A stretch of DNA of 64,000 bases from Chiloscyllium plagiosum (lineage: Eukaryota), in the NCBI RefSeq assembly GCF_004010195.1, contig NC_057749.1:8309451-8373450 (forward strand). Direction: 5' to 3'. The position numbers and the translations under genes were made by a program. The notes under the pieces were generated by a model. It was not told where the DNA came from. It saw only the letters and a list, made by a program, of their open reading frames with translations, and ran no database searches. Positions 1 through 64,000 of the stretch are shown here, piece by piece. How positions within the stretch are numbered: the first letter of the stretch is position 1; every line of letters starts with the position of its first letter.

Positions 1-483
1 CTGAGATCTGGCAGCACCCATGGAGAGAAAAGCGAGTTAACATTTCAAGGGAAGTAACTTTTCTTCAGAATGGGTCCCATGGCATGACTCTTTCCTCTTT
101 GAAGGTTGTGAGTTTTTGAAATTCCCTTCCTCAAAATGCAGTGAATGTAGCATCTTGAAATATATTTCAAGATTGAGGTAGGTGGATTCTTGATTACCAA
201 GTGGATGAAAGACTATTGGAAACAAGCAGGGGTATTGAGCTGAGCTTAAAATCAGATCATTCATGATCTTATTGATGTCAGGAAGGGGGGGTCAAATGGG
301 CTGAAGGGCCTACCCTTGTTCCTTGTTTGTATGTACTGTTTGAAAGGTATTGTCCAAATTCATTCCATCAATTCTCATCACGAAAGAAATAGATTATCCA
401 ATCATTAAATCATTGCTGCATTGGGAAGATGCTCAGATCAATTGTTTGGTAGTGTGTCATTCCAGCACAGTTTCATGAAATGG

Positions 484-700
484 AAACTGCTGGTGCTGTA
501 AATCAGAAACAAAAACAGAAGTTTGCTGGAAAAGCTCAGCACGTCTGGTGGCATCTGTGGAGAGACATCAGAGTCAACGCTTCGGATCCATTTCTGATCA
601 AGGGCCACTGAACCCGAAACATTGATTCTGATTTCTCTTCGCAGACGTTGCCAGACTTGCTGAGCTTTTCCAGCAATTTCTGTTTTTGCTCTGAAACAGA
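484..700. mobile_element. Fold-back pair of Penelope-type termini
   Basis: gctggaaaagctcagc...gcttcggatcc / ctgatcaagggccactgaacccgaaac...gctgagcttttccagc. Confidence 0.75.
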
Positions 701-1889
701 AATTGTGTTTGGGTCATTTATCACAGCTGCTTGAGGATATAACAAAAAGGGGAGATAAGGGAGGCGAGTAGATGTAGTCAACTGGATTAGCAAGAGGCAT
801 TCAATAGGATGGTTATGGCATGAGATAAGAACTCATAGTGTTGGGATGAAATACTAGCCAGGATGGAACACAGAACAATACAGCACAGGAACAGGCCCTG
901 AGGCCTACCACACCTGCCACAAACAGGATGCCATTCTAAACGAATACTTGGGTAACAAATGGGAAACTGAGAGTCAGGATAAATAGGTCATTTTAGAATT
1001 GGTAAAATGTAACTGGTACAAGGACCAGAGGAGCTGAATACCCTACTCCTACACCTAGTTCTTATGTTTCTGGGATTACCAGCATTTATTGCCCATTCCT
1101 AATAACCCTAATGAAGGTGATAGTGTGCATCTTCTTGAACTGCTACAAAATATTTGGAGTAGGAACACCCTCAGTGCTCTCAAATACACTGAAGGAATAG
1201 TGGTACATTTCCAAGTTAGGATATGAGTGGCTTGGATGGTATCTTGAAGGTGGTGGTGTTCCCATGTATCGGCTGCCATTGTTCTTGTAGATGGTGATGG
1301 TACAGGTTGGGGAAGTGCTGCTGAAGGTGTAAACCTCTTTAGAATATCGTGAGGTCTTGCAGTGCACCCTGTAGTGTTCAAGCCTCTCTTTTCTGTGCTG
1401 GTTAGTTTGTTGGACATGTTGACTGTCTCCAGTAGATGTCCCAGCAATGGAAGTGCTGAGTCACCAAATCTCAACAAAACCCATCTGTTCCCAATGCTTC
1501 CCACGCACTTGTGCAAGATTTTAAAGCAGCCAAACCTGGCAGAATTCCAAAGAAGCTCAGAGACCCAGAATTCCCTGAAAGCAGCAGTTTGCTAATTTAG
1601 CACTTTCAAAATTCCATTATATCCTCCCAGCTGCTGAGATTCCCTACCAGGGGCAATAAGTAGCAAAGCTGTTCCTTTCATCTGATATGAGAAAGGAAAG
1701 AAGGAAGGAGGGAAGGAAATAGAGAAAATTGCAAAACAATAGAGATATTTTAAAACTATTTCAAATGTAGCACCTGTGAGTTCAACAGTTAGGTACTCAC
1801 TATCTCTTGAAAGCACTGTAATATTACTGGGACACAATGATGAGCGGCAACAGACCATTTGCATGTATGGTGCCTCACAATGATCAATG

Positions 1890-2538
1890 ACCCTGTTTGC
1901 TATTCTTTCATGAGCTGTGTGTTAGTGTGACAGTTGTGGACACCTCAAGGTGCTGGAGCAGTCCCACCAATGCTGCCCATACAAGATCCTGTGAATCGCT
2001 GGGAAGACACACGCCAACACCCGTGTGCTCAACCAGGCCAACATCTCCAGAACTGAGGCACTGACCTCCCCTTGATTGGCTGTGATGGGCTGGGCATGTC
2101 GTCCCCATGACCGACATGAGGCTCCCCGAGGAGGTGCTCTACTCCCAGTTCCAAAACAGCAGGCCAGCCCCAGGTGGGACAGAGGAAGGGCCTCAGGGAT
2201 ACCCTCAAGGCATCACTGGGGAAGTGCAGCATTCCCACAGACACCTGGGAATCACTGGCTCCAGACCATCCCAAACTTGGGGGGAAGCATCCGCGAAGGC
2301 ATCGAGATTCTCAAGACTTGCCATCAGGAAAAAGCCGAAGCTGAAGGAAACAGTGTAAGGAGTGTGCTGCCACACTAACACCCCATCCACCCTTTTCCTG
2401 TGACCACCACCTGCCCCCAGTGTAACCGAGCCTGCGATAGCCCCATCAGTCTGTACAGCCACCTACTGACTCACCCTGAGAATGGGAGAGAGACAACCCC
2501 ATCTGCAAGGGACCACCGATGCTGATGATGATCATGAT
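1890..2538 (+). mobile_element. RTE-clade LINE 3' fragment
   Basis: Decayed ORF2 C-terminus resembling LRWAGHV.RM.D.RLP..VLYS..Q...R.PGGQRK, followed by a (gat)n tail. Confidence 0.75.
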
Positions 2539-3103
2539 GGTGTCAGTGTCGAAGTCAGCATTTTGTCCCTCCCTAATTACTTTGACAAGGTAAGGACGAT
2601 CTGCCTTCTTGAACCACTGTTGACTGTGTGAGGGGTAGATACACCCACACTACCTGTGGTGAGTGCAATCTAGGATTTTGACCCAATAACAATGAAGGAA
2701 TAGCAATATATTTCCAAGTCAGCACTGTCTGTAGCTTAGAAAGGCACTTACAGGTGGCAGTGTGTCCATGTGTCTGCTGCCCTTATCCCTCTTGATTGTA
2801 GAGGTCACAAGCTTTTTAAGATGATGTTGAAGGAGACTTGTTGAATTGCTACCCAAATGCAGGCCATTGTGCCCAGCTGCCATTATTGCTGAGAAACCCA
2901 GAGACTTCAACAAGAGGAGAAAGGTTTTTGAACATGTGTATGTAGGTTCTGAACACATGAATGCTTTGGACTCAAAGTCAGCGAAAAAGTTCAGGTATCC
3001 AGGAGGTCAGACATGGATAACAGCATCAAAACGAACTTAGAAAATTGCAAAGTTCATTGTCACTCCCTTTTTGCTAGATATAGAAACATATCAACCTTTG
3101 ATA

Positions 3104-4533: not shown

Positions 4534-5078
4534 TTCACCAACATACATAAAAAAACATGCAATTGTTGCTTTTATGGCACTGATAGCTGGCAGATAGTAG
4601 AGAACTCTTCAGTTCTGAAGAGCAGTCATACCAGATTCGAAACTTGAACTCTGCTTTCTCTCCACAGATGTTGCCAGACCTGCTGAGGTTTTTCAGCATT
4701 CTCTGGCTTAAATTCAGATTTCCAGCATCTCCAGTAATTTGCTTTTATTTAGAACGTGGAGAGGATTGCTTCTAAACTTTCAAAATCACTGCAACAAAAC
4801 ATTTAGTTCTTGATTCAAATTCATCTGTTAAAAGACTCAATTAAAGACTTTAACTTCACCTAGCTCAAACTATCCTACATTATGGACTACAAAAGTCCTG
4901 CTGCATTGAAGCATTAATAACACCATCTCGAATCATCTCAGTCTTTTGTCTAGCCTTTTCAATGGCTTTCTCAGTTTAACTGTTGTTAAAAACAAGATGA
5001 TAAAGTTCTGATCTCAAATGCAGATCTCCAGAGTGGGTTTGGCCCTCCGGTAACTGCATTCCTGTCTGCATGAATTTC

Positions 5079-5372: not shown

Positions 5373-5899
5373 AAAGCCTGTGTTTCTAACGACCCTCATG
5401 TTTGGACTCATTCTTTGAGCTGGACAGCCTGTAGCTAACTGGGATCCAGGATTCACAATCTGTCTGCAGAAGCACTTTCTCAGTGAGTGCACTTTTCAAA
5501 GTTTTCGTGATTTAGTAGCTCTCTCATCAAGACCCAACCCCCACCCACTTTGAATATTCCAGAAGCTTGATTGGAATGACCTTAGTACACAGCTCATTTC
5601 ATCTGTCTCCAGTGTTTTAAAATGTGTTCACAGCTTATTAAATCCATTAGCTTCAGCTTGGTGAAAGTCATTAGCATATCTGAACTCTTCACCCTGTATT
5701 ATCTGCTGTCGCCTCCCAGATTTGTTTTGGTCTCATTCACTGCCAGGAGCTCACCCTGTCTTCAAGGCCAGTCCTGAGCAAGGGCATGGCTTAAAACATT
5801 GACTCAACTCTCTCCTTTGTGAGTGGACTGCTTCAGTACAGGTTCCCCACATTTCTCAGTTTGAGTCCGAGTTAGCAACAAGAGGTAATACAAGTGGCA

Positions 5900-6155: not shown

Positions 6156-6159
6156 AAAC

Positions 6160-6799: not shown

Positions 6800-6800
6800 A

Positions 6801-6849: not shown

Positions 6850-8777
6850 TTAAGCATTGCCCCCAAAATTCGCAAGTATCATTCCGGAGATTTCATCCAT
6901 CTTAGTCTCACTCATCCCCTCATTATTTAATCGATAAAGTTCCTCTGCCTGATTCCCTTTTAGGGGCATCTGTTTCATTAAGGCTGCCTCAATCAGTCTT
7001 TGGGTGAGCCCTCGTATACAGGATATGATACAACAGCCAATGGCTACCAATACCCCGACTACTACTATCAGGGAAATAAGGATGGAAACCTTCCATTTTC
7101 CAAACCAGGATTCAAGCCATCCCGTGAGAGATGTGTCTAATCCTGAATTCTCAGCCAGTTCCTCTGCTAAGGTAATCAATCCCCTTAAGGCCCAAGTAAT
7201 TGAACCATCAGGTGCAGTTTTATTCGGAATAAAGGTACAACAGCTTCCTCCTAACATCACACACACACCCCATTTTTCCACTAAAATCATACCAAGGGCC
7301 ATTCTGTTTTCCCATGCCATCCTACTTGTCGCATCAAGCTGTTCTGATATTCCTTTAACCACATCTCTTGTATAATTTATAAATCGCTGTTGATTATAGA
7401 AAATGTAATTTATCCAATCTACATTTTTATTAATTGTTACCGACCAAAAGAGAGCTGGCTCAAAGCCTGCTGCAATCTGGTTATGAGCCTTGAATTCATC
7501 AGGTACCCCCCCTAGGGACTCCTATCGAATCGAGATAAATCCTGTCATCGAAAGAAGTGTCTAACAGTGATCTCTTACTCCTTCCCTTTTTCCCTACTAT
7601 CTTTTCCTTCTCAAATGCCAGGGTAAATGGAATTTCCAATTGCACAATTGCACATATCCCTCTCCAATCCGGAGGGAGGGTGGGTCTCAGTATTTTGCCT
7701 CCACAGTACCACCACAGATCCGCTTGGGGAACCTTTAGTGCTGAGTAGTTCCCTCCCTTGTCCGTTTCGATTACATTCTTAATCTCTGTACATAATTTCA
7801 GCTCCCCCAAATCTCTAGACCAATTTGTACCTCGTCTACGCACACACGACGTGTGATTTCCGACTGCAGCTGAAAACGTAGGGGGGCTTTTGAATCTTTC
7901 TTCTCCAAGGGAGGGAACATCAGAGATAAGAAGGTACAGTTCCTATCATTCCATGCAGTCTCATCCTGATACAGGGGATATCATACATTTCATGCCCTTC
8001 CTGTCTCGCTTCCACCCAAGCGGAAAGGGAACCACCTGGGCCACTGGCCTACCGGAGGCACTTGCATAGCAATTGCTCTTATTCAGACTTTTTACAGTAT
8101 ATTTTACCCATTCAACCCAGGCATTTGCATCCCCATATCCAGTTTCTATTTCAATGGTCTGTTTTAAGTCCTTTACCTCTATAACTTTTACTACTTTAAG
8201 GTCATTGGGAGGGGTGAAAGATTGTACCTTATTATCCAGTAGTTCTGCCCGTTTTCCCTGTTCTACACTAATTAAAATAAACAGCCTGAGAAATCATTCC
8301 TGTTTGCTTTCATTTCTACCCCAAATGTTTTATTTAATTGTATCTCATAGATGCCCCCCCCCCCCCCAGAATTGCTTCGTGCCATGTGGTTTTCTTTATC
8401 GTTAAGTATATTGGGTTACACTTTTTATCAGGACAATCGAGAACTGGTCAGAAGGGGGCCTGGTGTACTGTGACGAGACCATTATACCAAGTACCATCCC
8501 CAAGGCCATCCCCATAGGACTTAAGATGTATCTCAGAGCTGCGGTACTGTCTCTGACTATCCACATCCCCACAATTTACTAAGCTGCATGCATCAGCGTC
8601 TATTACTTGTGGATTATCAGACTCAGGAACCGTTAATAACACGTATGAAAATGATATTTGACAAAATCCCGATACTAAGAGGGCTAGCATCATTACTCTA
8701 AACATCCCTAGCATTCTAAAAAAAACGTGCTGAAGCACAAAAAGACTTAATATACAATCCTACAGAAATAATCCCAT
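6850..8777 (-). pseudogene. env: Retroviral env (SU-TM), frameshifted; TM reading frame open from about 7506 to 6850
   Basis: Hydrophobic leader; DACSLVNCGD; IETGYGDANAWVEW; DLWWYCGG; furin site RSKR; YLDSIGVPRG/VPDEFKA; ISD-like WENRMALGMIL; CX6CC (CVMLGGSCC); transmembrane helix. Start coordinate is approximate. Confidence 0.93.
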
Positions 8778-8806
8778 GTTCACGTCGCCACTGTATAATC
8801 AGTTAC

Positions 8807-11800
8807 TCAAAATCTCTTTAGTCTCTTTAGTCTGAGTTTCAGCGGGTCTTGCATTGATTCAGCTGTCCAGACTTCTTCCCAGTCCACTGGCCCTTTGATC
8901 CGTGTGTATTGAGTCCAGCCTTTCTCCGCCGTCCTTATTGCCATTTCGGTAGTCAAAAGAGCCTGATATGGCCCTTCCCAGTCCAGCTGCAATTTAGTCT
9001 CTGTCCATGATTATACTAAGACCCAATCTCCCGGCCGGATGGGATGAACGGTGAATTCAAGGGGCGGAGTCTGTGCCAATAAACCCTGTTTCCTGAGAAA
9101 AGACAAAGAGGAGGACAAGCCCAGTATATACTTCTTTAAGAACAAGTCTTTAGTTTCGGGAATTGGCAATTCTCCATTCGTTCCCAGATAAGGTAATCCA
9201 AATAAGATTTCATAGGGGATAGTCCCAAATCTTTCCTTGGGGCTGTTCGTACTCGCAAGAGAGCTATAGGTAAACATTTCCAAGGGAGTCTTGTTTCTAT
9301 TATCAATTTAGAGAGCTGGGGTTTGAGTGTTTGGTTCATTCTCTCAACCCTTCCTGGTGATGGCGGGTGCCATGGAGTATGGAACTCCCAGGAAATTCCC
9401 AACCCTTTCATTACCCCCTGTAACACTTTAAAGGTAAAATGAGTTCCTTGGTCAGAATCTATACAGTTCACTAGCCCATATCGGGGAATTATGTGCTCTA
9501 ATATTGTTTTAGACACCCCACTCGCAGTGGCAGTAGCTAGGGGGTTTGCTTCAACCCAACCAGACAGATGAACTACTATGACCAGCATATATTTTAGCTT
9601 TCCTACTCTGGGTAGTTCAGTATAATCTACTTGTATACTCTGGAAGGGTCTCAATCCCGGGTCTCTTCCTCCCGGGGTCTGTTTTCTCAAGACTTTCTTA
9701 TTTACCTTTCTGCATATTATACATCCCTCACATATTTATTTAGCAATTGTATATATTCCTTTACATCCATATTCCCTAAGAACTAAATCACACATTGCTT
9801 GTGCTCCCCAGTGACTGCCTTGATGTAGGACAGCCATAATTTCTCGCATCATCATTTTGTTTAACATTTCCCTTCCATTAGGTAACATCCATTTCTCCGT
9901 CTGCTGTTTTTGCAGCCCCTAAATCTCTCAATTCTTTTTCTTCGCTTTCAGTAAATATAGGAGCTTCCCGAGGACCTGGGACAGTAGGTATTAGGGAATG
10001 AATCACNNNNNNNNNNNNNNNNNNNNNNNNNNNNNNNNNNNNNNNNNNNNNNNNNNNNNNNNNNNNNNNNNNNNNNNNNNNNNNNNNNNNNNNNNNNNNN
10101 NNNNNNNNNNNNNNNNNNNNNNNNNNNNNNNNNNNNNNNNNNNNNNNNNNNNNNNNNNNNNNNNNNNNNNNNNNNNNNNNNNNNNNNNNNNNNNNNNNNN
10201 NNNNNNNNNNNNNNNNNNNNNNNNNNNNNNNNNNNNNNNNNNNNNNNNNNNNNNNNNNNNNNNNNNNNNNNNNNNNNNNNNNNNNNNNNNNNNNNNNNNN
10301 NNNNNNNNNNNNNNNNNNNNNNNNNNNNNNNNNNNNNNNNNNNNNNNNNNNNNNNNNNNNNNNNNNNNNNNNNNNNNNNNNNNNNNNNNNNNNNNNNNNN
10401 NNNNNNNNNNNNNNNNNNNNNNNNNNNNNNNNNNNNNNNNNNNNNNNNNNNNNNNNNNNNNNNNNNNNNNNNNNNNNNNNNNNNNNNNNNNNNNNNNNNN
10501 NNNNNNNNNNNNNNNNNNNNNNNNNNNNNNNNNNNNNNNNNNNNNNNNNNNNNNNNNNNNNNNNNNNNNNNNNNNNNNNNNNNNNNNNNNNNNNNNNNNN
10601 NNNNNNNNNNNNNNNNNNNNNNNNNNNNNNNNNNNNNNNNNNNNNNNNNNCCAATAGCTTCGAAAGATATGCTACTGGCTGTTTCATTCCTCCCCACCTC
10701 TGGGTTAATACTCCCAAAGCCGCTCCCTTATCCACGGTAGCAAAGAGATGGAAAGGTTTATCTAGTGAAGGTAAGGCTAACACGGGGGCATGGATCAGAT
10801 CTCTTTTGAGTTTCTCAACTAGTTCTTTTTCCTCATCGTCCCAACTTTGATTCCTCCTCTAATAGTTTGAGATATAATTTCTTAGTCTTTTAAGCATAAG
10901 AAACAATCCACAATCTGCAATATCCCGTTAGAGCCAAAAATTTACGTAACTCCCATTTAGTCCTGGGCAGCGGCATCCCCACTATTCCCTCTATCCGTTC
11001 CGGGCTTACCTTTCGCTTTCCCTCACTAACTAATGTCCCAAGTATTTCACTTCTCGCTCCACATGTTGTAATTTGTTTTTAGATACTCGCAGGCCCTGCT
11101 GACCCAGGAAATTCAATAATTTGTTAGTGGCTTCTACTACCCTTTCTCTTCTTTTTCCTGATACCAAGAGGTCGTCTACATACTGCAACAGGGTAGTCCC
11201 CTTGGGGCTGCTACATTTCTCCAATATTTGTTCTAGCATCTGTCCAAATAAATTCGGGGATTCCATAAACCCCTGGAGGAGCACGGTCCACCGGTATTGC
11301 TGCTTCCGTCCTGTCTTGGGATCTTCCCATTCAAAGGCAAACAAATTCCTACTTTCCTCCGCCAAGGGACAAGCACAAAAGGCATCCTTTAAATCTGTCA
11401 CACTAAACCATTTGTGGTCATGAGGGATCTTACTTAATAACGTATAGGGATTTGGCACCACTGGGTGCCTGATCTGTACTATTCGATTCAATGTTCTCAA
11501 ATCCTGCACCAATTGATAAGTTCCATCGGATTTCCGCACTGGTAGAATTGGGGTATTATAAGGAGACATACATGGCTCCAACAGTCCATCTCTAATCAGT
11601 CCCTCAATTACGTGCTGCAGTCCTCGTTTACCTTCTATGGAAATGGGATATTGTCGCTCACAAAATGTCCCCTTTCCTTTTTAAACTTATTTCTAGGGGA
11701 GGGATCTGTATTTTTCCACGATTCCCTTCCCTAGCCTATACAATAGAGTCTATCTCTCTCTCCACATCCTCTGTCAACATTGCCATTTGTACAACTAATT

Positions 11801-12139
11801 CTTTTTCCTGAATTTCAATCTCCAGTCCTAAGAGGATAATTAAATCTCTCCCTAGTAAGTTATTTCCTATGTCAGGGATATACAACAGTTCCCTGTGACT
11901 CTATCCTTAGGACCTTCTATCATCATAGGTTCAAATACTGGAACAGTAAATCCTTCCCCTTTTACCCCGGAAACAGTAATTGACCGTGTTGACATTCCTA
12001 CTTTCTTTGGTTTAAAATTCAGCGATGACGGTGCTGCCCCCATATCTACTAGGAAGACCACCTCTTCCCTACAGGGCCCAACCTTCAAGTTTATCAAGGG
12101 TTCCTGGTGGGTCCCCAGGGGCAGGAACCCCTGACACCC
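8807..12139 (-). pseudogene. pol: Retroviral pro-pol (protease, RT, RNase H in the gap, integrase), disrupted
   Basis: Protease FLVDMGA (DTG mutated). RT PYNTPILPVRK, DLKDAF, QGFMESP, YVDDLL. Integrase HHCC region plus IQVDYTELP, IDSDQGTHF, GRVERMN. Several stops and frameshifts. Confidence 0.95.
10007..10650. other. Assembly gap (644 N) within pol, over the expected RNase H region
   Basis: Run of N. Confidence 1.
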
Positions 12140-13519
12140 CTATTCTTCATCAAAATTCATAAGCGGAATTGCCCTTTCTTCCCTTTGTAGATCAGGACAC
12201 TCCCGCTTAAAATGCCCTATCTTTCCGTTATAATAGCATCCTGCCTGTGGAGAATTCCATCTCTGTCCCTGTCGCCCGAACCCTCTATCAAATGCTCCCC
12301 CTTGTCCTCTCCCTCTCCCTCTGCCTCTCTGTCCTACATGCTGCCACTCGCCGCTCCAATTGCTCACTATTGGTTCCATTCTTTTCTTAACAACTTCTTC
12401 AACCGTAGTTACCATTATTTTCGCCTTCTGTTTTTGTCTTTCATCCTCTCTCTTTACAAACACTTTCTGTGCCTCTCTTAACAATTCATCTAATGGTTTT
12501 TTGCTCCACCCTTCCAACTTCTGTATCTTTCTCTGTATGTCTGGCCATGCCTTTGTCACAAAATGTACTTTCAAAAGACCCTGTGCCATTGGATCCTCAG
12601 GGTTCATTCCAGAGTATTTCCGCATTGAGTCTCTTAATCTTTGCAAGAAAGTTGAGGGAGTCTCATCTTTCTCCTGTCTAACTTCAAGGGCTTTAGTCAA
12701 ATTCTGCGACTTCAGAACTGCCTGTCTTATTCCTTTTAGAATCAGGTCTTTCAATTCCCTCATTTCTTCTCTATGCTCCCATCTCCTTTTTAAATGTTCT
12801 GACCTCCCCACTGGTGAGGGGGGCACTCACAAACCCAATCTCTTTGTCCCCTGTTGGTACCTCCCGAAGGGGATAAGTCTTTACGTTCCTCCCCTTGTTT
12901 TGTTTTTGTTTTTTCCCCCTTAGGCTTTGGTTTAGATACTCCGGAGGCCTCCTCTACATCTACTTTATCTTCCCTTTCTTTTGTTGAGGATTGAGGGTCG
13001 GAACAACAACATCCCCGTCCACCGCCCCTTCGTCCTCCTCTTGTGGGTCATCCCTTCCCTGTCCCTGCCTGTCTGTCTCTCCTCCTCCCCCATTTTCACC
13101 TAATCTGATTTCATGGTACGGGGTGGGGGGCAAGCGCCAAGAGGATCCCAGGGACTGGGTGGGGCAGAGGGGGAATCCTTTGTCTTTACTACCATCATTC
13201 CCAAACTGCCCTTCCAACAGGATGCATAGTCCGCCTCTTCTTGACTAAAAGGTTGGTTTTTATTCACATACAAATCTAAATACTGACACATCCAATCCTC
13301 GTCCGAACCATACTTTGGCAGAAGACAGCCGGGCGAAGGATTGGTTCTTTGGTCCATACTAAACAACAATATTTAATCATTTTCTTTTTATCTTTTACCC
13401 TTGTACAAGTGTTACTTGTCCATTCCCGCAACATCCTCCCCAACGGACTTTCAGGAGGAATGTTACCAGGGACTTTTTCTTTCTTTACTCCGTGACAATT
13501 ACTCTGCCTACCCCCCCAT
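12140..13519 (-). pseudogene. gag: Retroviral gag (MA-CA-NC), frameshifted and with an internal CA deletion
   Basis: Removing one G from a G-run restores an MGGRQS myristoylation start. MA: IPPESPLGRMLREW...KKKMIKYCCLVW...WPKYGSDEDW. CA start PLREVP..IGFVSAPLTSGEVRTFKKE; MHR-like VRQEKDETPSTFLQRL; degenerate knuckle CYYNGKIGHFKREC; ends in TAG. Confidence 0.93.
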
Positions 13520-15360: not shown

Positions 15361-15703
15361 CATAGAATCCCTACAGTGTGGAAAGAGGCCATTTGGCCCA
15401 TCATGTTCACATCGACCCTCCAAACAGCATCCCATCCACATACAGCTGCCCACCTTATCCACATAGCCTCAGACTAACCATGGCTAGTCCACCTAGCCTA
15501 CACATTATGGATAATTTAGCATGGCTATTCCATTTATCGCACACATCTTCAAATTGTGGGAGCAAACGGAATCACATGGAGGAAAAGCACACAGACACAG
15601 GAAGACTAAGCAAACTCCACATAGATAGTCACCCGAGGCTGGAATCGAACCAAGGTCCTTGGCACTGTGAGGCAGCAGTGCTAACCATTGAAGAACTGTG
15701 CCA
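15361..15703 (-). mobile_element. HE1-type V-SINE
   Basis: V-domain, head and tail motifs. Confidence 0.8.
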
Positions 15704-43024: not shown

Positions 43025-43215
43025 TCAGAAATTGCTGGAAAAGCTTAGCAGGCCTGTGGAGAGAAATCAAAAGTTAATGTTTCAGGTTGAATCCCTTCAC
43101 CCGAAACATTAACTCTGATTTGTCTCCGCAGATGTTGCCAAACCTGCTGAGCTTTTCCAACAATTTCAATTTTTTTGTTTCTGATTGACAGCATCTGCAG
43201 TTCTTTAGGTTTTTT
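43025..43215. mobile_element. Fold-back pair of Penelope-type termini, inserted in a Deu-SINE
   Basis: gaaattgctggaaaagcttagc...gttaatgtttcagg / cccgaaacattaac...gctgagcttttcc. Confidence 0.7.
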
Positions 43216-46849: not shown

Positions 46850-47320
46850 GAATCATAGAGATGTACAGCACAGAAACAGACCTTTCGGTCCAGTTCGGAA
46901 GAAGGGTCACTCAACCTGAACTGTTAACTCTGATTTCTCTCCACAGATGCTAATAGACCTACTGAACTTTTCCAACAAATTCTGTTTTTGCTTCAGTTCA
47001 ACATGCTGACGAGACATCCTAATTAGTCCCGTTTGCCAGCATATGGCCCATATCCGTCTAAACCCTTCCTATTCATATATCTAACCAGTTGCCTTTTAAA
47101 TGTCACAATTGTACCAGCCTCCACCACTTCCTCTGGCAGTTCATTCCACACACGCATTACCCTCTGTGTGAAAAAGTTGCCCCTTTGGTCCCTTTTAAAT
47201 GTTTCCCCTCTCACCCTAAACCTATGCCCCTCTGGTTTTTGACTCACATAACCTGGGAAAAAGACTTTGACTATTCACCCTATTCCACGCCTCTCATGAT
47301 TTTTAAAATCTCTATAAGAT
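46850..47320 (-). mobile_element. CR1/HER1 3' end with a Penelope tail inserted at about 46893-46993
   Basis: GHRFRVRGETFKRDQRGNFFTQRVMRVWNELP. Confidence 0.8.
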
Positions 47321-48280: not shown

Positions 48281-50213
48281 TAACTTCAGAGCAGAAAGGA
48301 GTTCAACAACAAAAACAGTTTGTCAAGCCACAGCTGGCAGATGATTTCACAGGGTTCCGTACGTTCATGGTAAAACCTAAACAAAAAGCAGAATTTGCTG
48401 AGGTTAATGATGTTAGAATGAGTTTTTCGTTTCATTGTCAATGAGATGGCAAACTGTGACTATACTGGTTTGGCAGAAATGTTTTCCACTGCTCACTAAA
48501 CTGCAGATTCCAAGAGCCAACAAACTTTGAGATGAGTCAGAATAAAGGCAGCAACTGAACCGCTGTATCCCCCGTCCTGGAGGTTGATTTAGCTCTGTTG
48601 GCTGGATGGCTGGTTTGTGAAGCAGTTCTTCTACGCAACTTCCCCCGCTCAGAATGACAAGAGCAAAATATGCAGGGGAGGACCACCACTTAGAAGGTCT
48701 GCTCGATTTGACTGAGCGGTAGACATTTGCTGAGTCAATATTTATGAACAGTGGGCAGTGGACCAGAGAGATCTGGTGTGTTCAGGGTTAGCCAACTTCA
48801 GATCCAATCGAAGAGAATTAGGGGTGGAATCTTTTCGGGGTCTGAATAATGTGGGCAGTTTTGAGAAATGTGGCAGAATTGCAGTGAGGCCTCTTCTGAT
48901 GTTGGGACCGACACGTTAGCATGCTAATTTCTAGATGTATTGTCAAGATTCTCACTAGACGGCAGTGAGGTGTCTATAAAGGGGGATTTTTGATCAGTTT
49001 GGAAGGTGCTGACGAAGAGGCGTCCATGTTTTAGATGGTACCCATTGCTGCCACCATATGTCCGCAGTGGAGGAAATGAATGACTAAGGCAATGAAGAGC
49101 ATGGATTTGATTTACTAGGATGTGTGAGCGATCACCCAAAAGTGGAAGGAGCAACTTTTCATTGAGGAAGATAGAAAAATAGTTGTAGCAGAGCAGTGGA
49201 ACATGCGAAAGAGATATGCTGATCATGCTTTTGGCATGGCGCGATTCTGATCTCCCCCATTACTGAAATGTAAACCACAAATGTAAGAGTGAGAAAGGGG
49301 GAAAGTAGAGATTAGTAAACACCCAGACTGACATGGCGCTATGTGAGATCAGTAATGAGCACATTAACACATTTGTCTGCAATTCCTCTGTGCACCCATT
49401 GTAATAACGATTCCACTCCATTAAAGGAAGCGTCTTTATTGAGAATATGACAGGAACTTCATATGAGTGAGTTAATGCAAAAGAAGAAATTTCAACCCAC
49501 TGTGTAATAACATTCGTTACTAATATCACACAGTCAGACTTCACCATAACTGCATCAAAACAAAAACGCCAGCTACAATGAACTGCTATTACACAGTGGG
49601 CTGGATCTTATTACATTTGCCTCACAAACCACACTATCACTTTCCCAGGCAAAAACAGCGTATGTAATTTTCTTTTCCTCACGAGAGGATTGGCATGATG
49701 TTTGCAGAATATATTGCTGCTGGGAAGGTTAGATGGTTCTGCCAAGCCACCAGACTCAAACTTGGTCCAAACTTTCAAATAACAGCGAAATCCTGAGAGT
49801 GCTCGAAATCTGAAACAAAATGCAGAGGATGCTGGAGGAACTCGCAGGTCCGGGAACATCCGTCAAGAGAAAAACCAAGTCAATGTTTTGAGTTTATTGT
49901 GACGTTTCTTCAGAAGAGTGCATACTGTGCCACCTCAGTTGGTTCATTAAAGGGCACTCCTGCTCCTCCGGGGAACCTAATCCTTTCTGCTTAACGATAC
50001 CATCCGATCTGGCTGGTTAGGATTCAGTAGCAGGTGCTGCTGAGCCTACTACAGTGCAAGGCGATGACTGGGTTTTGAAAGCCAGGGGTAAAGGATGTGG
50101 TGGTGGGGAAGGGGATGAAGAACAATTGGGACATCTTCCTCCAATTAATGTACCTTCCGTTCCTCGCTTCACATCAAATCAGGTGCAAACTCTGCCTCCT
50201 TACTCTTGCTCGA

Positions 50214-50586
50214 TTATTATGGAAGTAGGGGCAGATTAGTAAGTTTATTACAGAAGTGGGTGTAGAGTAATGGGTTTAATATGGATGTGGGGGCAGAAGA
50301 ATGGTTTTGTTGTGGATGCGAGGGCAGCTTAGTGGGTTTATCATGGAAGCAAAGGCAGATTAATAGCTTTATTGTGGAAGTGTGGACAGATCAGTGAGTT
50401 TATTATGGAAGTGGGGGGCGAATTAGTGGTTTCATTATGGAAGCAGGAGCAGATGAATGGGTTTATTATGGAGACGAGGGCAGATTAGTGGTTTATTGTG
50501 GAAGCGAGGGCAGATTATTGGGTTTATTATGGAACTGGGACAGATTAATGGTTTTATTATGGAGGTGGGGGGAAATTAGTGGTTTT
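50214..50586. repeat. Diverged 31-bp minisatellite, about 12 units
   Basis: Consensus ttattatggaagtgggggcagattagtgggt. Confidence 0.9.
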
Positions 50587-52572: not shown

Positions 52573-52987
52573 ATAGTCAACCCAACAGGAGCAATGCAGA
52601 AAGCTATCAAGATTAAAAAGGTTGAAAGGAAAGATCAACTAGAAAGCAATGATTTGATGATTTAAATGAGATTTCAGAAATCTTTATCATAAAAATGAAT
52701 TGAATGATCAAAAGGAATCTAACATTCTTTGAACCACTTTGAAGGATTTAGCATGATCGTCTCAGAAGCTGCCATTTCATTATACGAAGTGCCAATATTT
52801 CCATCTAAGTAATGGACAATCGGATCCTACAATCGTCACTGATTTTTGAACTCAATCTAACTGTTGGCCGTCAAGTCGTCCATTAAGTTTGAAACTAACT
52901 GTGACGTCTGTCCTAGGTATTTGACAAGGGAATCATGGCAAAATTACAAGATTAGCTATGAACGGCTCTGCAGCTATAGTAGATTTT

Positions 52988-53117
52988 AGGAGAAGATGAG
53001 GACTGCAGACGCTGGAGACCAGAGTCAAGAGTGTGGTGCTAGAAAAGCACAGCCGGTCAGGCAGCATCCAAGGAGCAGGAGAATCAATGTTTCGGGCAAG
53101 ATCCCTTCATCAGGAGT
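52988..53117 (-). mobile_element. Penelope-derived terminus with a hammerhead-like core
   Basis: Minus strand CTGATGAagggatcttgcccGAAAcattga. Confidence 0.7.
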
Positions 53118-53649
53118 CCAACCCTCTGCCCCAGTAGAGTCCATCCTACTTCTGACTCCCCAAGCAAAAGGGCAGGACCTCGATGTACTTTTTCAAGATT
53201 GGAAATGTTTTCACTGAAATTTAACCAAAATTGAAGAGATTCAATTTGAACTGAGGTTATTTAGCAGCCAAATCCTAGTGTGGAATGGAAGGCACCAGGC
53301 TTTTACTCCTATCCCAGCCTATCCAATCTTTCCTCATAAAGCAACCTGCTGATTCCAGGTATCAATCTAGCAAACCTCCTCAGAACTAGCTCCAATGCAT
53401 TTACAACCTTGCATGACCCCAGAAAGTACTTTACAGCCAATTAGGATTTTGTTTGAAGCTTATGTCAGGGAGTCAATTTGCATGCAGTAAACATCTAGAC
53501 CATGTTCTTCTTATATGTCTCTAATTCCAGCACTTCAATAACTTTTCGATTTCGATCTTCAACTTTACAAAAGCCCGTAAAATTTCCCACCATTTTATTC
53601 ATCACAAAACTCAGATGCACAGCTTTAAAAGTATTGTGCAACAGATTGC

Positions 53650-53894
53650 AACTATATCACCATCACGCCCGCACCTTCATCGACCTATTGCATTCCCAGC
53701 TACCTTCGCCCCCCCCCCCCTCCCTTTTATCTCTCAGCCCCCTTGGAACCCCCACCCCACCCCATTCCTGAAGAAGGGCTTATGCTCAAAATGCCGCATC
53801 TCCTGCTCCTCAGATGCTGCCTTAGCGACTGTGCTTTTCCAGCGCCACGCATTTTGACTCTCACCTCCAGCACCTGCAGTCATTACTTTCTCCC
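53650..53894 (+). mobile_element. Penelope 3' UTR and terminus, same family as 39300-39621
   Basis: cccagctaccttc...tttatctctc...attcCTGAAGAagggcttatgctc. Confidence 0.7.
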
Positions 53895-55029: not shown

Positions 55030-55377
55030 ATAGATGTCCTACAGTACAGAAAGAGGCCATTTGGCCTATTAAGTCTGCACTAACCCTCTGAAGAGCATCT
55101 CATCCAGACCCACCCGTCTCCCATTACCATAACCCCATCTTTCCCATGGCCAACTCACCTAGCCTGCACACTACAAAGCATTTTCCCATGGCTAATCCAA
55201 CTAACCTGCACATCTTTGGACTGTGGGAGGAAACCGGAGCACCCAGAGGAAACCCACGCAGACACGGTGAGAATGTGCAAACTCCACACATTCAGTGATC
55301 CGAGGCTGGAATCAGACTAGGATTCCTGTTGCTGTTCCTGCGACAGCAGTGCTAACCACTTCCCACCGTGCCACCCA
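55030..55377 (-). mobile_element. HE1-type V-SINE
   Basis: V-domain motifs. Confidence 0.85.
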
Positions 55378-56724: not shown

Positions 56725-57859
56725 ATATCCCACTGGGGAAGTAGCCCAGATTGTTGTAACTTGAGAGTTAGTGGAGGACTTGAACCCGGTGCCTTCAGAC
56801 ATGATGGACTCAAGCACAGAGCTACAGTTGACACTTAAAATCTTCTCTGGTTCCTCTCTCATGTAGACAGCCAAAAGCTTTCACACTCCACTGCAAGCAG
56901 TTAACAGAGAATCAGAGATGCCGCCTAAGTAGGAGGCTGCGGCAGTGACAAAGGGTAGTTGGTTTTAATGTAACTCTGTAATTTCCAATTAAAGCAACAA
57001 GTCCCACTCTGCATTATTGTAAATCAGAATGTCACACACCACGGAAGAGCAAAAAAAAATACCTTTTATTCCAAACGTTAATGAGATGCATACTTGTTAT
57101 ATTACATAAAAGAACTGTATATTTAATTTTGTAATCTTATAGTTCATTGCCACAGGCCTAGCAACTGGCTCAGGTTTCTGTAGAACATCACTGATGAAAT
57201 TAATGTCACGACTTTTCATGATCATGATAATTAAGAATACTACTTACACATTTCAAATTAATGATTTTTTTCAAGAAGTGCTTGCTAAGAAACAGAGTTT
57301 CTAACTTAACGCTGATTAAAATTTGCAAACATATTTTCTCTCCAGGAAGTTGCAATATTTCTATTCATGTTTCCATGCGTGACTGCGATATAAAGAGTTA
57401 GTTATTTCAGTAGCACGATGGAGTCTTTGACAATTTGTTGATGATATTTAGCTACATATTCCAAAGCGTCTTTGAGACATTATTTTTTTTCCTTGAAAAA
57501 CTTAAAGAGAGTTCTCCTTCCTGTAGCCCTGTGGTTCTTGGATTGTCAGTAAAAACAAGAAAACTGGGTGTATTTGACACTTAAAGAAATGCCAATGCAG
57601 AGAAAACAGGAAGAACTGCGGATGCTGTAAATCAGAAACAAAAACAGAAATTGCTGGGAAAGCTCAGCAGGTCTGGCAGCATCTGTGGAGAGAAATCAGA
57701 GTTAACATTTTGGGTTCAATAACTCTCCCTCAGAATCAACAGAAAGGTTTCTCAGCGGCATTCCAATAGGATATGGGAGCCATTTCTACATTACTGTACA
57801 GAACAATGTTATGACATAAGCCCCATTAGTTACAAGATATGTCAAAGAGATGAAGACTA

Positions 57860-58060: not shown

Positions 58061-58084
58061 TGGACAGAGGTTCTGTCTGTGCTT

Positions 58085-58600: not shown

Positions 58601-59659
58601 CAAAAGTATTAGGTTGTGTAAGATGGCATATAAATGTAATTCTTTCTGCCTGTGAATATACATTTAAATAGAGTTAGATGCTTAGGGGATACACTTTACA
58701 GTTTGAGTTAACTTTGCCACTGTAATGCATCAGGTACCTAAAAATCATCTGACCAGCATTATAGAGGCTGGATTAACCCTTTAAACCCCCTTGTTTAAAT
58801 CAGAGCGAATGGAGAACTGAGCAAAAGTGGCAAGGCCTCACCCACTGTTGTTACAGAATGCAATTATGCTCCAGCAAATAAAGCAAGACATTGCAACCTT
58901 TGAACAATTAGTGACGCAGAAGATCATTTTACACATGACAGCGAAAGAAAAATAATCCTAGAAATTTGTCAGAACTGTCATGTTGCTTCTAATTTACAAT
59001 CGTGACAAATGCTACATTTTGCAATTTAAAATAAACTAACCTTCACCGTTGAATTACTTGAGTTGGATATAAAAGTACAGAATGTCTGTTCTGTATGAGA
59101 AACATAACCAGTTACAAAACATTGCAGTATGTTCAGGGAGTTCAGAGAATTCAGAATTCTTCTGTTATCTTTTTTAACCCTTACCTTGCTGCTTTACAGC
59201 TATTACAAAAGATTTTTTTCTCTTATGTGTTGGCCAATGGCCAAAAGAATACTGCAACTGACTCACAAATTCTCAATAAAAACCAATAAAACAGCGGATA
59301 CTGGAAAACAGGAATCAAATAAACCAGTTGGACGATAACCCAGTGTTGTGTACCTTCTGACTTTGTCCACCCAGTCCAACACTGGCGCCTCCACAGCATC
59401 TGCGGAGAGGAATCAGAGTTATAGTTTCAGGCCTGGTTCTGTAGAATGGTCACTGGCCCCAAAACGTTAACTCTCATTTCCCTCCACAGATGTTGCCAGA
59501 CCTGTTCAATCTTTGCAGCAATTTCTGTTTGTGTCCCAAATTCTCTGTCCATGCTCCATTTGAACATGGCTTCATCGTTTGATGGAATTATGTACAGGAA
59601 TGACAGATTTAAGAGAAACAGTAGGCCTTTCAGCCCTTTAAGCCTATTTTGCCATTAGT

Positions 59660-60444: not shown

Positions 60445-60950
60445 AGAATCATAGGCATAGAGACGTATAGCATGGAAACAGACCCTTCAGTTCAAATCGT
60501 CCATGCCAGCCAGATATGCAACCTAATCCTGTCCCATTTCCATACGCGCACCACCCTCTGCGTAAAAATGTTATCCCTTAGGTCACTTTTAAATCTTTCC
60601 CTTCTCACCTCAAACCTATGCCCTAAATCTGTTTACCCTATCCATACCCCTCATGATTTTATGAACCTGTATAAGGTCACCCCTCAGCCTCCGATGCTCC
60701 AGGGAAACCAACCCCAGCCTATTCAGCCTTTCTCTATAGCTCAAATCCTCCAACCCTGGCAAGATCCTTGTAAATCTTTTCTGAACCCTTTCAAGTTTGA
60801 CAACATCCTTCCAATAGGAGGGAGACCAGAATTGCACACAATATTCCAAAAATCGCTTATCCAATGTCCTGTACAGTCGCAACATGACCTCCCAACTCCT
60901 ATGCTCAATGCTCTGACCAATAAAGGAAAGGAAGCCAAACGCCTTCTTCA
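60445..60950 (-). mobile_element. CR1/HER1 3' fragment
   Basis: LYRTL..FLEYCVQFWSP..LERVQKRFTRILPGL. Confidence 0.85.
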
Positions 60951-60952
60951 GT

Positions 60953-61175
60953 AGTCGAGACTGTGTTGCTGGTAAAGCACATCAGGTCAGGCAGCATCTG
61001 AAGAGCAGGAGAATCGATGTGTTGGGCATAAGCCCTTCATCATGATTCCTGATTAAGGGTTTATGCGCGAGACACCGATTCTCCTGCTCCTCGGATGCTG
61101 CCTGACCTGCTGTGCTTTTTCAGCACCACACTCTCAACTCTGACCTCTAGCATCTGCAGTCCTCAGTTTCTCCTA
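60953..61175. mobile_element. Fold-back pair of Penelope-type termini
   Basis: gggcataagcccttcatca / ctgattaagggtttatgcgc at the centre, with inverted arms on both sides. Confidence 0.75.
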
Positions 61176-61921
61176 ATCTTCTTGTTTAAGGGTTCAAGTC
61201 CCACCTTGTTTGGAATGTGCCATAAAATGGCTGACCAAATTAAGTTTCTTTCATTATTAATTTCCTGTTACACTACAGAAAGCAGCGGTCAATCCTACAT
61301 AAGGCAGACCCATTTAGCAATGGGCTAATTGATCATTTAATTTATTTAACATACAGTCATTGAGGGATAAGTATTGGTCAATTTACTTAAAAACCCATCT
61401 GGTTCATTAATGCCCTTTAGGGAAGGAAACCGGTCATCCTTACCTGGTCTTGCCTACATGTGACTCTAGACCCACAATAATGTTGAGTTACACTCATCTG
61501 CCTTCTGGAATGGCCTTGGAAACCTCTCAGTTCAAGAGCACAAAGAGATGGTCAATACTTACTGGATCCTGCCTGTGACATCCACATCCCATGAAAGGTG
61601 AACTACAAGGTTTAACATTGTGCCCAAGAACCTGCACATCCTGAAACAGTGAAACACTGCCAGTGTTAGCCTGAATTATGAGCTCATGCGTGTGTGTCAG
61701 TGAACCTACAACCTGTCAGCCAGACCAGGAAAGGATGGCAGTTTCCTTCCCGCAAGAGCATTAGTGAACAAGATTTCATGGGCTCCATTAGTTTAGATTA
61801 ATGTCAGAATTTGTTTTAAATTAAATTCAAATTCCGTCATGGCAGGATTTGAACCCACGTGCCCAGAATGTTATCTGGCTCTCTGGCTTAAATAGCCCAG
61901 CAATAGTATCACAAGGTCATT

Positions 61922-62203
61922 AGGTAAAAACGAGGACTGCAGACGCTGGAAACCCAAGTCTGGATTAGAGTGTTGCTGGAAAAGCACAGCAGGTCAGGCA
62001 GCATCCAAGGAGCAGGAAAATCGTTGCCTCCCTTTGGCTGTGGAGGCTGTGATCTACCTACCAGATCATTGGAAAGCAAAAGTGAGAAGTGCAGATTCCA
62101 GAGATTAGAGTCAAGAGTGTGGTACTGGAAGAGCACAGCAGGTCAGGCAGCATCCAAGGAGCAGGATAATCAACGTTTTGGGCAAAAGCCCTTCATCAGG
62201 AGA
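61922..62203 (-). mobile_element. Two Penelope-derived termini; the second (62068-62203) has a 10-bp TSD ctaccagatc
   Basis: Minus strand CTGATGAagggcttttgcccaaaacgttg; TSD at 62058-62067 and 62204-62213. Confidence 0.7.
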
Positions 62204-62724
62204 GCTACCAGATCTCTACCCAGTGTAGAATGCACATAGGTTAAAGTTCAGTATTCAGACCCTCTGACATGTTCTTCCAGCCCAGCTAGCCCACCAACAG
62301 CAATGGTTCTGTACTTCACACCATGTGAGCTATCAATAGACGGAGCAAGGAAACCGAGAGGGAGAGCAAAACCACATTTTGGCAGGTAATCTAGTCTGAA
62401 AACTGATCACCCAGTTCAAAATAACACTGGTATGGAAGCTTAGAACGACATGCACAGCACTGGGAGTGACCTGAGAAGATAGGAGCAAGCAGCTAAGGGA
62501 AATATATTGTCAAAGCTTTTTAATCCTGTGCTAGTCAGGGCAAATACAAGAATGCCAAATCTCAAATGATCACAACAATATATGCCGCAGGAGAAAAGGG
62601 TGTGACTGGTCCACTTGGAATGACTAAGATGTTGGCATGGAGGAAAAATCAGATCATTAAACTTGGATGTATTCCCTGATATTAAACATATGCCACCTCT
62701 TGCAAGCACAAATGAGTTAAACCT

Positions 62725-63316
62725 TTATTGATCAATGCATTGAGTACAGGAGTTGAGAAGTCACTGTACAGGACATTGGTTAGGCCACTTTTGGAATATT
62801 GCATGCAGTCATGGTCTCCTTGCAATTGAAAGACTATTGTGAAACTTGAAAGGGTTCAGAAAAGATTTACAAGGATGTTGCCAAGGTTGGAGGGTTTGAG
62901 CTACAGAGAGAAGTTGAATAGGGTGGGACTGTTTCAGCTGGAGCACCGGAGGCTGAGGGGTGACTTTATCATGGTTTATAAAATCATGAGGGGCATGGAT
63001 AGGGTAAATAGCCAAGGTCTTTATCTGTGGTGGGGGAGTCCAGAACTAGAGGGCATACCTTTGGGGTGAGAGATGTAAAAGGGACCTAAGGGGCAACTTT
63101 TTCATGCACAAGGTGGTGTGTGAATGGAATGAGCTGCCAGAGAAAGTGATGGAGGCTGGTACAATTGCAACATTTAGAAGGCATCTGGATGGGTATATGA
63201 ATGGGAAAGTTTTAGAGGGATATGGGTCAAATGCTGGAAAATGGAACTAGATTAATTAATGGACAAGTTGGACCAAAGGACTTGATTCCATGCTGTACAG
63301 CTCTATGACTCTGACT
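62725..63316 (+). mobile_element. CR1/HER1 3' fragment
   Basis: KLERVQKRFTRMLPRLEGLSYREKL..LEHRRLRGD; tail ctatgactctgact. Confidence 0.88.
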
Positions 63317-64000
63317 CCATCTTAAATTGTTGCGAGTTTAGCTATTGGTGCACTCAGTGCACTTCCTGATATCCCTTTGAGTTCACTGTTACTTTCTCAA
63401 TGGGCAGTACCTCAGCCAATCAGAGCCAAGTTGTCAACCAATCAGTATCTCTTTCCTCTGTAAAATAATTTGGCATTCTTGTACTTATCCTGATGAGAAT
63501 GAGACAAAAAGCTTCAACAACGTATCTCTCTTTTCAACAATATTCAAACGGAATGCCACCTATTTAAGAAAAATGAATCGGGTGAGGAGAATTTGTTTGT
63601 TTAATAAACTACACAGTGTGACTCCTGAACATCCCATCATCACCCACTGTGTTTTATCTGTTTTAGATATATAATCAGAATGTAATCTGTCATAAACCTC
63701 TCTGAAATACAAGAACAATCAGTTCCTGTTGGGAAAATAACATTTAGTTTGAAATACAAGCACAGCTCCTGTGGCAGATTAAAGCAGTCGTTCCTCCATT
63801 ATTTTCTTTGGGCCAACAATTTTGCTCACAAGGTAGAGGAGATCATTGCATTTTATGGCTAGAATGATAAAGTAACCAACATTGCCTGTAGTTCAATTAG
63901 CCCTCTGGTCTCTGAATCACAACATTGAAATTTTTAGTCTCATCTCAGACTTCAAAACAAACAGCCATGAAAGCTGAGGGACCAGTTCATCCATATGCAA

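Follow-up and report, generated by a model that had tools for sequence, protein, structure and literature searches.

How does a stretch of shark genome come to hold what looks like a hammerhead ribozyme every few kilobases, and are these motifs what they appear to be? The question is raised by 64,000 nucleotides of Chiloscyllium plagiosum DNA (NC_057749.1:8309451-8373450, in a 3.56-Gb assembly; this whole stretch is the window below), in which a sequence-only reading had pointed out about 20 minimal hammerhead-like cores in short repeats that it took to derive from Penelope-like elements (PLEs). We hold, with a probability of about 85%, that the motifs of the window are dead retrocopies of PLEs from several lineages, which carry the minimal hammerhead of these elements. 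What is newly added here is that the ends of the copies cluster at the 5' edge of the motif, and not at its cleavage site.

The motif runs, in order, through a helix I of 3-6 bp, CUGANGA, one unpaired base, a helix II of 4-7 bp, GAAA, a 4-nt palindrome and H17. The palindrome, which stands in place of helix III, is ACGU in families A-D and AGCU in family E, and departures from it are almost all CpG transitions. Helix I is AUUC/GAAU in A2, AGUU/AACU in B, GCA/UGC in C, UCAC/GUGA in E and AGUC/GACU in F, and helix II takes the forms GGGC/GCCC, GGGUC/GACCC, GUCGCCU/AGGGGAC, GAGUC/GACUC and GGAGC/GCUCC, the last of which (GGAGC...GCUCC), together with the palindrome AGCU, is the signature of family E. 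The lowest-energy monomer folds of intact A2 and B copies consist of exactly helix I and helix II. This layout is that of a minimal type I hammerhead, an identification already made from the sequence and now borne out by the alignment, by covariance-model matches, by covariation and by conservation of the core. The likeliest function of the motif would be self-cleavage after H17, probably only when two motifs pair through the palindrome. According to Lunse, Weinberg and Breaker (2017), PLE hammerheads reportedly cleave as dimers.

The evidence that these motifs are more than a recurring string comes from searches of increasing structural content. A loose pattern, CTGAWGA-N5-30-GAAA, scored against 100 shuffles of the window, gives 9 window matches where 4.6 ± 2.1 are expected, a number reached in 5 of the 100 shuffles; at about twice chance, this pattern cannot carry the claim alone, and it is structure and repeat context that do. 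A strict descriptor (helix I of at least 3 bp, helix II of at least 4 bp, intact core, Watson-Crick 15.2-16.2, U16.1 and H17) finds no site in the window, in 100 shuffles or in the reversed window, and the window copies are thus relics; applied to a random sample of twenty 10-kb genome stretches at round-number coordinates (200 kb in total), it finds 3 sites against 0 in the reversed sequence. A relaxed structural descriptor returns 11 sites in the window against 1 reversed (3 of the 11 were judged, by reading, to be non-family motifs), and 28 against 3 reversed in the random sample, with the best parse of most family matches needing an extra base after A9. Finally, a covariance model (R1) of helices I and II, built from 14 good aligned copies of four families and run with filters off, gives 47 window matches at E ≤ 10 and 18 at E ≤ 1e-3, 2 of the 18 being training rows, with about eight further window sites that are weak, partial or of a family absent from the model. 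At E ≤ 0.01, R1 has 56 matches over the window and the random sample, 18 in the former and 38 in the latter (12 of the 38 are training rows). Family E is absent from R1 and so scores weakly (35800-35842, E 0.25), and its copies were read by eye. The covariance search that the sequence-only reading had proposed as a check on itself turned out in its favour. Its estimate of about one motif per 3 kb can be set beside the observed densities, one per 3.5 kb for the window and one per 5.1 kb for the random sample.

Compensatory change bears on whether both helices are real. In the alignment of the 56 matches, standard pairs make up 82.7% of the pair cells, compared to 70.0 ± 1.2% after shuffling, with none of 500 shuffles reaching the observed value, and when the partners are slid against each other, 11-51% of the cells are paired. 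Both sides have changed in 63 cells, where 22.4 would be expected. All eight modelled pairs of stems I and II show compensatory change, which was the second check proposed, and the covariation score is 0.431, as opposed to 0.219 when shuffled (reached in 0 of 500). The two helices covary across at least five families, and, as this covariation holds between families that otherwise share little, it shows that selection in the source elements keeps the catalytic core and both helices; the claim that stem II differs across at least four families around a constant core is likewise confirmed by the family alignments. The unpaired base after A9 (column 16) is present in 56 of the 56 matches, being A in 49, T in 5, C in 1 and G in 1, and H17 in 55 of the 56, while the non-CpG core bases are each kept in 52-55 of 55-56 matches, a figure to be read in the knowledge that R1 itself rewards these bases. 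Helix II is closed by G10.1-C11.1, and this pair (columns 17-43) is GC in 35 matches, GU in 9 through C to T decay, AU in 2, another combination in 4 and gapped in 2.

Most of the damage is done at two essential CpGs, C11.1-G12 and C15.2-G16.2, which mutate first. Among the 56 matches, C11.1 is changed in 11, G12 in 16, C15.2 in 14, where it has become T (with 2 other changes), and G16.2 in 18, where it has become A (also with 2 others), changes at these four positions being counted as transitions, and the remaining core positions are changed in 1-4 matches each. These counts put numbers on the earlier remark that the motif is often CpG-decayed, which they confirm. The full core is retained by 7 of the 18 window matches, core and palindrome by a single one (40857-40904), and none has in addition the four outer pairs of helix II and at least three of helix I; the corresponding numbers for the 38 matches of the random stretches are 22, 10 and 9. 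The smaller share of intact cores in the window (7/18 vs 22/38) means that its copies are older than average. All of them are relics, and the motif is not maintained after insertion. On the scale of the genome, the 28-mer of family A occurs 137,809 times with up to two mismatches (69,035 + 68,774), compared to 0 + 0 when read backwards, and a 42-mer from the downstream block occurs 27,427 times; scaling up from the 200 kb gives roughly 700,000 recognisable motifs, of which about 100,000-300,000 (on the order of 10^5) would be complete, with a wide error.

As regards the carrier, the window contains 15 matches, at up to three mismatches, to an anchor sequence immediately 3' of the motif (AGATGCTGCCTGACCTGCTG), compared to none in shuffles, and at five mismatches the anchor marks 21 window elements together with one likely chance match. 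The family A copies with a perfect motif (L001-L008) have a common sequence to about 125 nt downstream, and some of them also upstream; the 350 nt upstream of one family A copy are themselves a repeat, with 8,462 first-look candidates in the genome. At twelve loci, the copies are truncated on the 5' side at varied points, the longest reaching more than 1.8 kb upstream, and the frames of long family A copies (P0001 and P0003) read as decayed reverse transcriptase (RT). At E ≤ 0.001, 680 relatives of P0003 were found, headed by proteins of sharks and rays. The top one, with 76% identity, belongs to a bamboo shark record, and whale shark, zebra shark, rays, skates and corals are represented among the others; both RVT_1 and GIY-YIG are present in several relatives that are 53-55% identical. 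A tblastn search with one relative (P0060) places its GIY-YIG residues 457-545 at L020:1388-1624, and the motif starts at L020:1856, such that the open frame of RT and GIY-YIG ends about 230 nt upstream of the family A motif. The same order, GIY-YIG and then the motif, recurs in loci L010, L011, L013-L016, L018, L019, L021 and L022, and in the random loci L027, L029, L030 (twice) and L042. There are many long copies genome-wide, some with open frames. Pfam searches with the open frames of long copies yielded only a weak RVT_1 match (E 7.5e-4) and did not detect GIY-YIG; the PLE link came instead from tblastn with named relatives. The Pfam GIY-YIG model run against the genome gave one weak match, with 150 of 14,403 candidates scored. 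This comparison with coding relatives shows the commonest family, A, to be Penelope-derived, as had been suggested for all the repeats. For the other families the suggestion carries over in part: B and D appear to be linked to PLEs by the motif and a downstream block (common to A and B as GATGCTGCC[A/T]GACCTGCTG), and C, E and F by the motif.

How the copies were made can be read, to some extent, from where they end. We considered 65 family A copies that had not been selected for their ends, taken from the window, from the random loci and from a set of 20 loci for which a 42-mer (+43 to +84) had served as anchor, with positions counted from C3 of the motif, which places the cleavage site at +28. 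The 3' ends are bimodal, with 23 at +80 to +97, none at +98 to +110 and 42 at +111 to +131 (by eye, the 20 anchored loci divide into 9 short ends and 11 long), and family A thus has two fixed 3' ends, at about +90 or about +125. On the 5' side, 9 copies start at -51 or further upstream, 1 at -50 to -15, 3 at -14 to -9, 7 at -8 to -5, 20 at -4 to -1, 4 at 0 to +3, 9 at +4 to +12, 2 at +13 to +24, 3 at +25 to +32 and 7 at +33 to +45. About half of the copies, 31 of the 65 (-8 to +3), therefore stop within a few bases of helix I. There is no excess of starts at the cleavage site, the three at +25 to +32 including the 62021 start of the window copy 61932-62021, and of 11 loci selected for their upstream sequence, none has its 3' end there, all 11 running through to the usual 3' ends. 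Exact counts over the genome are in keeping with a boundary immediately before the motif: the 28-mer occurs 1,305 times, 745 times when preceded by ATTC and 270 times when preceded by CTCATTC, and the 28-mer followed by GATTCTC occurs 628 times. The heptamer TCATTCC is retained across subfamilies that differ further upstream. We take it to be initiator-like, going by the initiator consensus.

The following course of events would account for these ends. A copy is the 3' terminal stretch of a PLE RNA, running from one of its two 3' ends back in the 5' direction. Reverse transcription would start at internal sites, as it does in vitro for PAc, the Poseidon element of Anolis carolinensis, and the cDNA would extend as far as the transcript's 5' end, which would lie close upstream of helix I and some 4 nt ahead of C3. 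Head-to-head inverted pairs would result from priming on both strands of the DNA, as reported for PAc, the templates of transposition would be uncleaved RNAs, and after insertion the motif decays, CpGs first. We go one step further only tentatively, at somewhat less than even odds: the shark PLE hammerhead may be the first structure of the transcript, with the RNA starting at TCATTCC, the A at -4 being the first base of a 4-bp helix I, and the mini-copies may be cDNAs of the "strong-stop" kind, made from uncleaved templates. Hundreds of thousands of mini-copies of 95 to 130 nt, as well as the head-to-head pairs, would then stem from internal RT start sites, and, as their ends avoid the cleavage site (3 of 65 starts, 0 of 11 ends), they would amount to a large in vivo record of uncleaved templates. 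If this is correct, the ribozyme would serve for something other than trimming the template, for example for stripping the cap and leader off RNAs when these encounter a second copy. Single-cell polyA reads are found on both strands and 99% of them run into unlike sequence, with no point at which molecules start or stop, in a library type that cannot show RNA 5' ends.

Other explanations of the short copies have to be weighed against this course of events. A rather unlikely one is that the short families, above all B, are separate non-autonomous elements, SINE-like or retrozyme-like, with master genes of their own that are mobilised in trans by the PLE enzyme. In every listed copy of family B, the start lies 0-4 nt ahead of CUGANGA and the sequence beyond it is unrelated, a long B copy was never seen, and the downstream block common to A and B could be the recognition region of such an enzyme; animal retrozymes have, moreover, been argued to derive from PLE terminal repeats (preprint 10.64898/2026.07.22.740005). 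However, the hallmark of retrozymes, head-to-tail tandem arrays of the motif, is not found in the window, where neither the 47 R1 matches nor the repeat families include a same-strand tandem, and family A makes the same mini-copies yet is tied to coding copies. Long B copies may also simply be rare, and only about 330 kb were sampled.

It seems less likely again that the copies break off at helix I for a reason other than the RNA ending there, and that the boundary marks a preferred point of template switching, or of annealing between cDNAs, at the self-complementary parts of the motif. Such a process would fit the 32 copies that start at -10 to +3, in that 19 of them were judged by eye to be the arms of inverted pairs joined head-to-head, and helix II contains several of the junctions. 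Most junctions, however, lie 5' of the whole motif, past palindromic parts that had already been copied, and solo copies with target-site duplications share the same start point (28492 and 62201 in the window, and L044, L001 and L002). Clear target-site duplications of 9-11 nt flank 3 of the 32 boundary copies (a common substring of at least 8 is found in 2 of 200 mismatched controls), a small number because most boundary copies are pair arms, and 2 of the 32 are long copies of other subfamilies with a broken alignment. Finally, it is very improbable that the motifs are chance look-alikes, or a conserved hairpin that binds protein or RT without catalysis, even though the loose pattern is only about two-fold enriched, Rfam has no match and such motifs are reported to have little activity in vitro (PMC4209133). 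Hardly any matches are found in reversed or shuffled controls, and the unpaired C3-A9 and G12-A14 are kept across families with different helices, which a mere hairpin would not need.

We note that several points weigh against the interpretation of the window motifs as dead PLE retrocopies that carry a hammerhead. Judged from sequence, the PLE link is demonstrated for family A only. Within family A, the motif lies on the 3' side of the PLE and the sampled loci reach no 5' end; the region L064 (C5:90091500-90092400), upstream of a long open Penelope-like frame, is almost wholly N, and in the search for the 5' end of a full-length copy, the motif of L021 was found to belong to a separate insertion. 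Covariation was measured on an alignment that had been fitted to the model and that consists of related sequences. Rfam reports no hammerhead family on the window at gathering score or even at E ≤ 10, as is to be expected for a motif without helix III. The lowest-energy dimer folds do not contain a hammerhead dimer, a 4-bp helix being too weak for such a prediction; the idea that PLE hammerheads work as dimers is a published one (PMC4209133). The cleavage step itself is drawn from the literature (PMC4209133) and is predicted for the shark copies. Furthermore, the 5' boundary was taken from the ends of BLAST alignments, whose precision is a few bases, and 2 of the 31 come from broken alignments. 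The copy ends bear no sign that cleaved RNA was ever a template; taken with what was found in vitro for PAc (PMC11167929), this makes any role of the ribozyme in transposition a putative one. As a separate observation on the sampled loci, 444 N lie within a copy at L023.

Within the window, the seven motifs that the sequence-only reading had put forward as its best examples all lie at the coordinates and on the strands it gave, as judged by reading of the sequence and by R1, and 12 of its 14 decayed sites are also real, such that 19 of 21 named sites stand. The two that fall are 43620, where GAAAC and TCATCAG come in the wrong order for either strand, and 63490, which has no helix II and no R1 match. 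Four sites had been overlooked: 5767-5807(+), 27513-27545(-), 41334-41381(+) and 59432-59475(+).

The family A copies of the window range from mini-copies to longer remnants. Three mini-copies have recognisable motifs: 28488-28616(+) (motif 28488-28529; C3 to T, G12 to A, long 3' end) is flanked by an 11-nt target-site duplication, CATTCTGTTCT, 62075-62204(-) (motif 62165-62204; G12 to A) by one of 10 nt, GATCTGGTAG, and 52987-53120(-) has a long 3' end and, in its motif at 53079-53120 (R1 E 5.1e-9), an intact core with G16.2 to A. A long copy, 39277-39617(+), spans -252 to +85 with a short 3' end and carries an intact core with G16.2 to A (motif 39526-39567); it is paired in inverted order with a minus-strand copy, 38886-39163, which contains a GIY-YIG endonuclease remnant of a Penelope-like element (39014-39163(-); tblastn with P0059 and P0060, E 7.5e-6). 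The copy 53655-53891(+) extends 112 nt upstream of its motif (53761-53802; G12 to A). Three copies start inside the motif, namely 27434-27545(-), with its 5' end within helix II and no CUGANGA (motif part 27513-27545, E 0.85), 43422-43510(+), which starts at core A9, and 61932-62021(-), which begins at about +29 and is thus without the ribozyme core. Two head-to-head pairs complete the family: the arm 42396-42519(-), with a long 3' end and a motif that lacks its first two bases and U16.1, meets 42513-42610(+), with a short 3' end and a decayed core (CTAACGA, motif 42513-42554) in which GAAACGTC is kept, and the pair 60948-61175 consists of arms 60948-61045(-) and 61039-61175(+), whose motifs (61009-61050(-) and 61042-61083(+)) are both decayed.

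Family B contributes the best-scoring of its motifs at 36391-36434(-) (R1 E 2.3e-14, a training row), which reads AGUU CUGAAGA A GGGUC-ACUG-GACUC GAAA CAUU AACU, with an intact core and CpG decay of G16.2 to A, and whose lowest-energy fold is helix I plus helix II. At the very start of the window, 32-74(-) (R1 E 5.7e-5) has C15.2 to T and a weak helix II, and its element runs past the window start; 587-630(+) (R1 E 1.5e-9, G8 to C) is the right arm of a head-to-head inverted pair, whose left arm, at about 470-562(-), begins within helix II. The cores are decayed at 46889-46932(+) (CGGAAGA, GAAC), 57697-57740(-) (CTGAGGG, AAAA) and 59432-59475(+) (CTGTAGA, with an inverted stub just upstream), and in the head-to-head pair 43069-43117 (both strands), the junction lies within helix II and neither CUGANGA box is present. 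Two motifs are B-like: 4608-4653(+), abutted by a short inverted stub (4598-4619(-)), keeps the core and has lost helix II and U16.1, and 49880-49915(-) is weak (E 0.88), with G12 to A and a poor helix II.

Family C is represented by an inverted pair with 97% complementary arms, 40824-41034(-) and 41204-41414(+). The first holds the only window motif with a complete core, the ACGU palindrome and U17 (40857-40904(-), R1 E 2.6e-10, a training row); it reads gca CTGATGA t gtcgcct-agcc-aggggac GAAA cgtt tgc, with seven positions in helix II, one of them a G.G mismatch that is also present in the other family C copy, where the motif (41334-41381) has C15.2 to A. A family D motif at 45943-45988(-) (R1 E 8.7e-8) has an intact core, G16.2 to A and a damaged helix II. 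In family E, the arm 35751-35857(-) has kept CUGAUGA, the palindrome AGCU and helix I UCAC/GUGA, with G12 to A (motif 35800-35842), while its 92% complementary inverted partner, 35903-36009(+), has a decayed core, as does the copy 32840-32920(+) (CTGTTGA), which was read by eye and has no R1 match. The family F motif, 5767-5807(+) (R1 E 1e-6), has helix I AGUC/GACU, G8 to C and G12 to A.

There are eight inverted pairs in the window in all, and they present a hazard for annotation, as such Penelope-like pairs yield false microRNA-like hairpin matches: the sub-threshold Rfam matches to the microRNA precursors MIR841 (35782-35979, 81 bits against a cut-off of 200) and mir-1791 (60977-61116, 39 against 75) arise because hairpins form from the pairs 35751-36009 and 60948-61175. 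Elsewhere in the genome, perfect motifs of 28 to 35 nt lie on opposite strands only 5-13 nt apart at C1:153732041-153732101, C5:10448777-10448855 and C5:104061990-104062072; by their match coordinates, these are young head-to-head dimers with both hammerheads intact.

The remainder of the window holds features of other kinds. An endogenous retrovirus-like stretch on the minus strand, 6850-12923(-), encloses a run of 644 N (10007-10650) and has frame matches to a Gag p30 core (12140-12826(-)), a reverse transcriptase (11030-11680(-)) and an integrase core (9136-9735(-)), a weak match to an envelope-like protein (6850-7521(-)), and a sub-threshold match (E 2.2) to a gag/pol readthrough site at 12077-12142. 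Another abundant repeat, which is about 340 nt long and has no relation to the carriers of the hammerhead, is present in about 12 copies (e.g., 15362-15703, 35340-35650 and 55030-55352) and contains CTCTGAAGAGCA, which is able to mimic a core box. Tandem arrays with periods of 54, 35 and 31 nt occupy 30270-31316, 38190-38959 and 50213-50569, respectively, all without the motif, and the array of period 35 directly adjoins the Penelope-like copy 38886-39163 of the minus strand. An open frame at 27753-28295(+) matches Pfam ALKBH8_N (E 1.4e-7, residues 93-128) and is a candidate exon or repeat piece.

Taken as a whole, the phenomenon is real, ordinary in kind and large in number, with the copy ends as a modest new angle. 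If the extrapolation holds, this would be among the richest natural collections of a self-cleaving RNA motif in one vertebrate genome, and its decayed copies form a ready-made mutational series for the tolerance of the motif. The only biochemical study of what PLE hammerheads do found cleavage dispensable (PMC11167929); the shark copy ends say the same from within an animal, and may point to the transcript start. Our literature searches found nothing specific on shark PLE hammerheads, shark genome papers aside.

The class to which the motif belongs is that of the minimal hammerheads (min-HHRs) of metazoan PLEs, which has been in print since 2014, and the shark copies are an added member. Cervera and de la Pena (PMC4209133) give as traits of these ribozymes covariation between families, a base between A9 and 10.1, the G10.1-C11.1 pair and a palindromic 15.2-16.2, and all four, which go beyond the descriptor, are present in the shark motif; the two are also alike in their core boxes, in the absence of helix III, in the short helix I, in occurring mostly solo or as opposite-strand pairs, and in their association with PLE ends. 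In the published PLEs, the motif sits in both flanking repeats of a full element (PMC4209133), and in the shark it is placed on the 3' side, for family A. The two differ in number and spacing: the approximately 4,000 motifs of coelacanth and 9,000 of Xenopus were called "remarkable" (PMC4209133), compared to the 137,809 matches of the shark 28-mer, and the pairs described were 100-700 bp apart, whereas many motifs in shark inverted pairs are 5-30 nt apart. The main text of that study does not name a shark host.

Variable 5' truncation and frequent inverted 5' partners are PLE traits that the shark copies share, and an optional "tail" of 30-40 nt that gives two 3' ends is a third trait of these elements (PMC11167929). 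In PAc, this tail is explained by a pair of neighbouring internal sites at which RT starts, cutting and extension take place on both DNA strands, insertion does not depend on cleavage, no RNA ends were seen at the cleavage site, and the open frame starts within the motif (PMC11167929). As in PAc, the shark hammerhead adjoins a coding region, and the bimodal shark 3' ends match the optional tail, while the lizard results come from in vitro work and RNA-seq on one element (PMC11167929) and the shark picture is read from genomic copy ends. Non-LTR retrozymes (PMC7229834; 10.64898/2026.07.22.740005) likewise consist of short non-coding repeats that are tied to PLEs and contain type I hammerheads, and the 2026 preprint reports tandem retrozymes in one chondrichthyan genome (10.64898/2026.07.22.740005). 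Unlike the copies of the window, retrozymes form head-to-tail tandem arrays that give circular RNA.

The shark motif shares its catalytic core and the topology of helices I and II with canonical type I hammerheads, and differs from them in having neither helix III nor loop-loop contacts and in its extra base after A9. In canonical type I ribozymes, such as those of Schistosoma and of newt satellite DNA, helix III is a hairpin and loop-loop contacts are present. Finally, the HDV-like ribozymes of R2 and L1Tc, a different class, likewise provide the RNA of a retroelement with a self-cleaving motif on its 5' edge, and there the cleaved end sets the 5' end of the element (PMC4209133), whereas the ends of the shark copies avoid the cleavage site.

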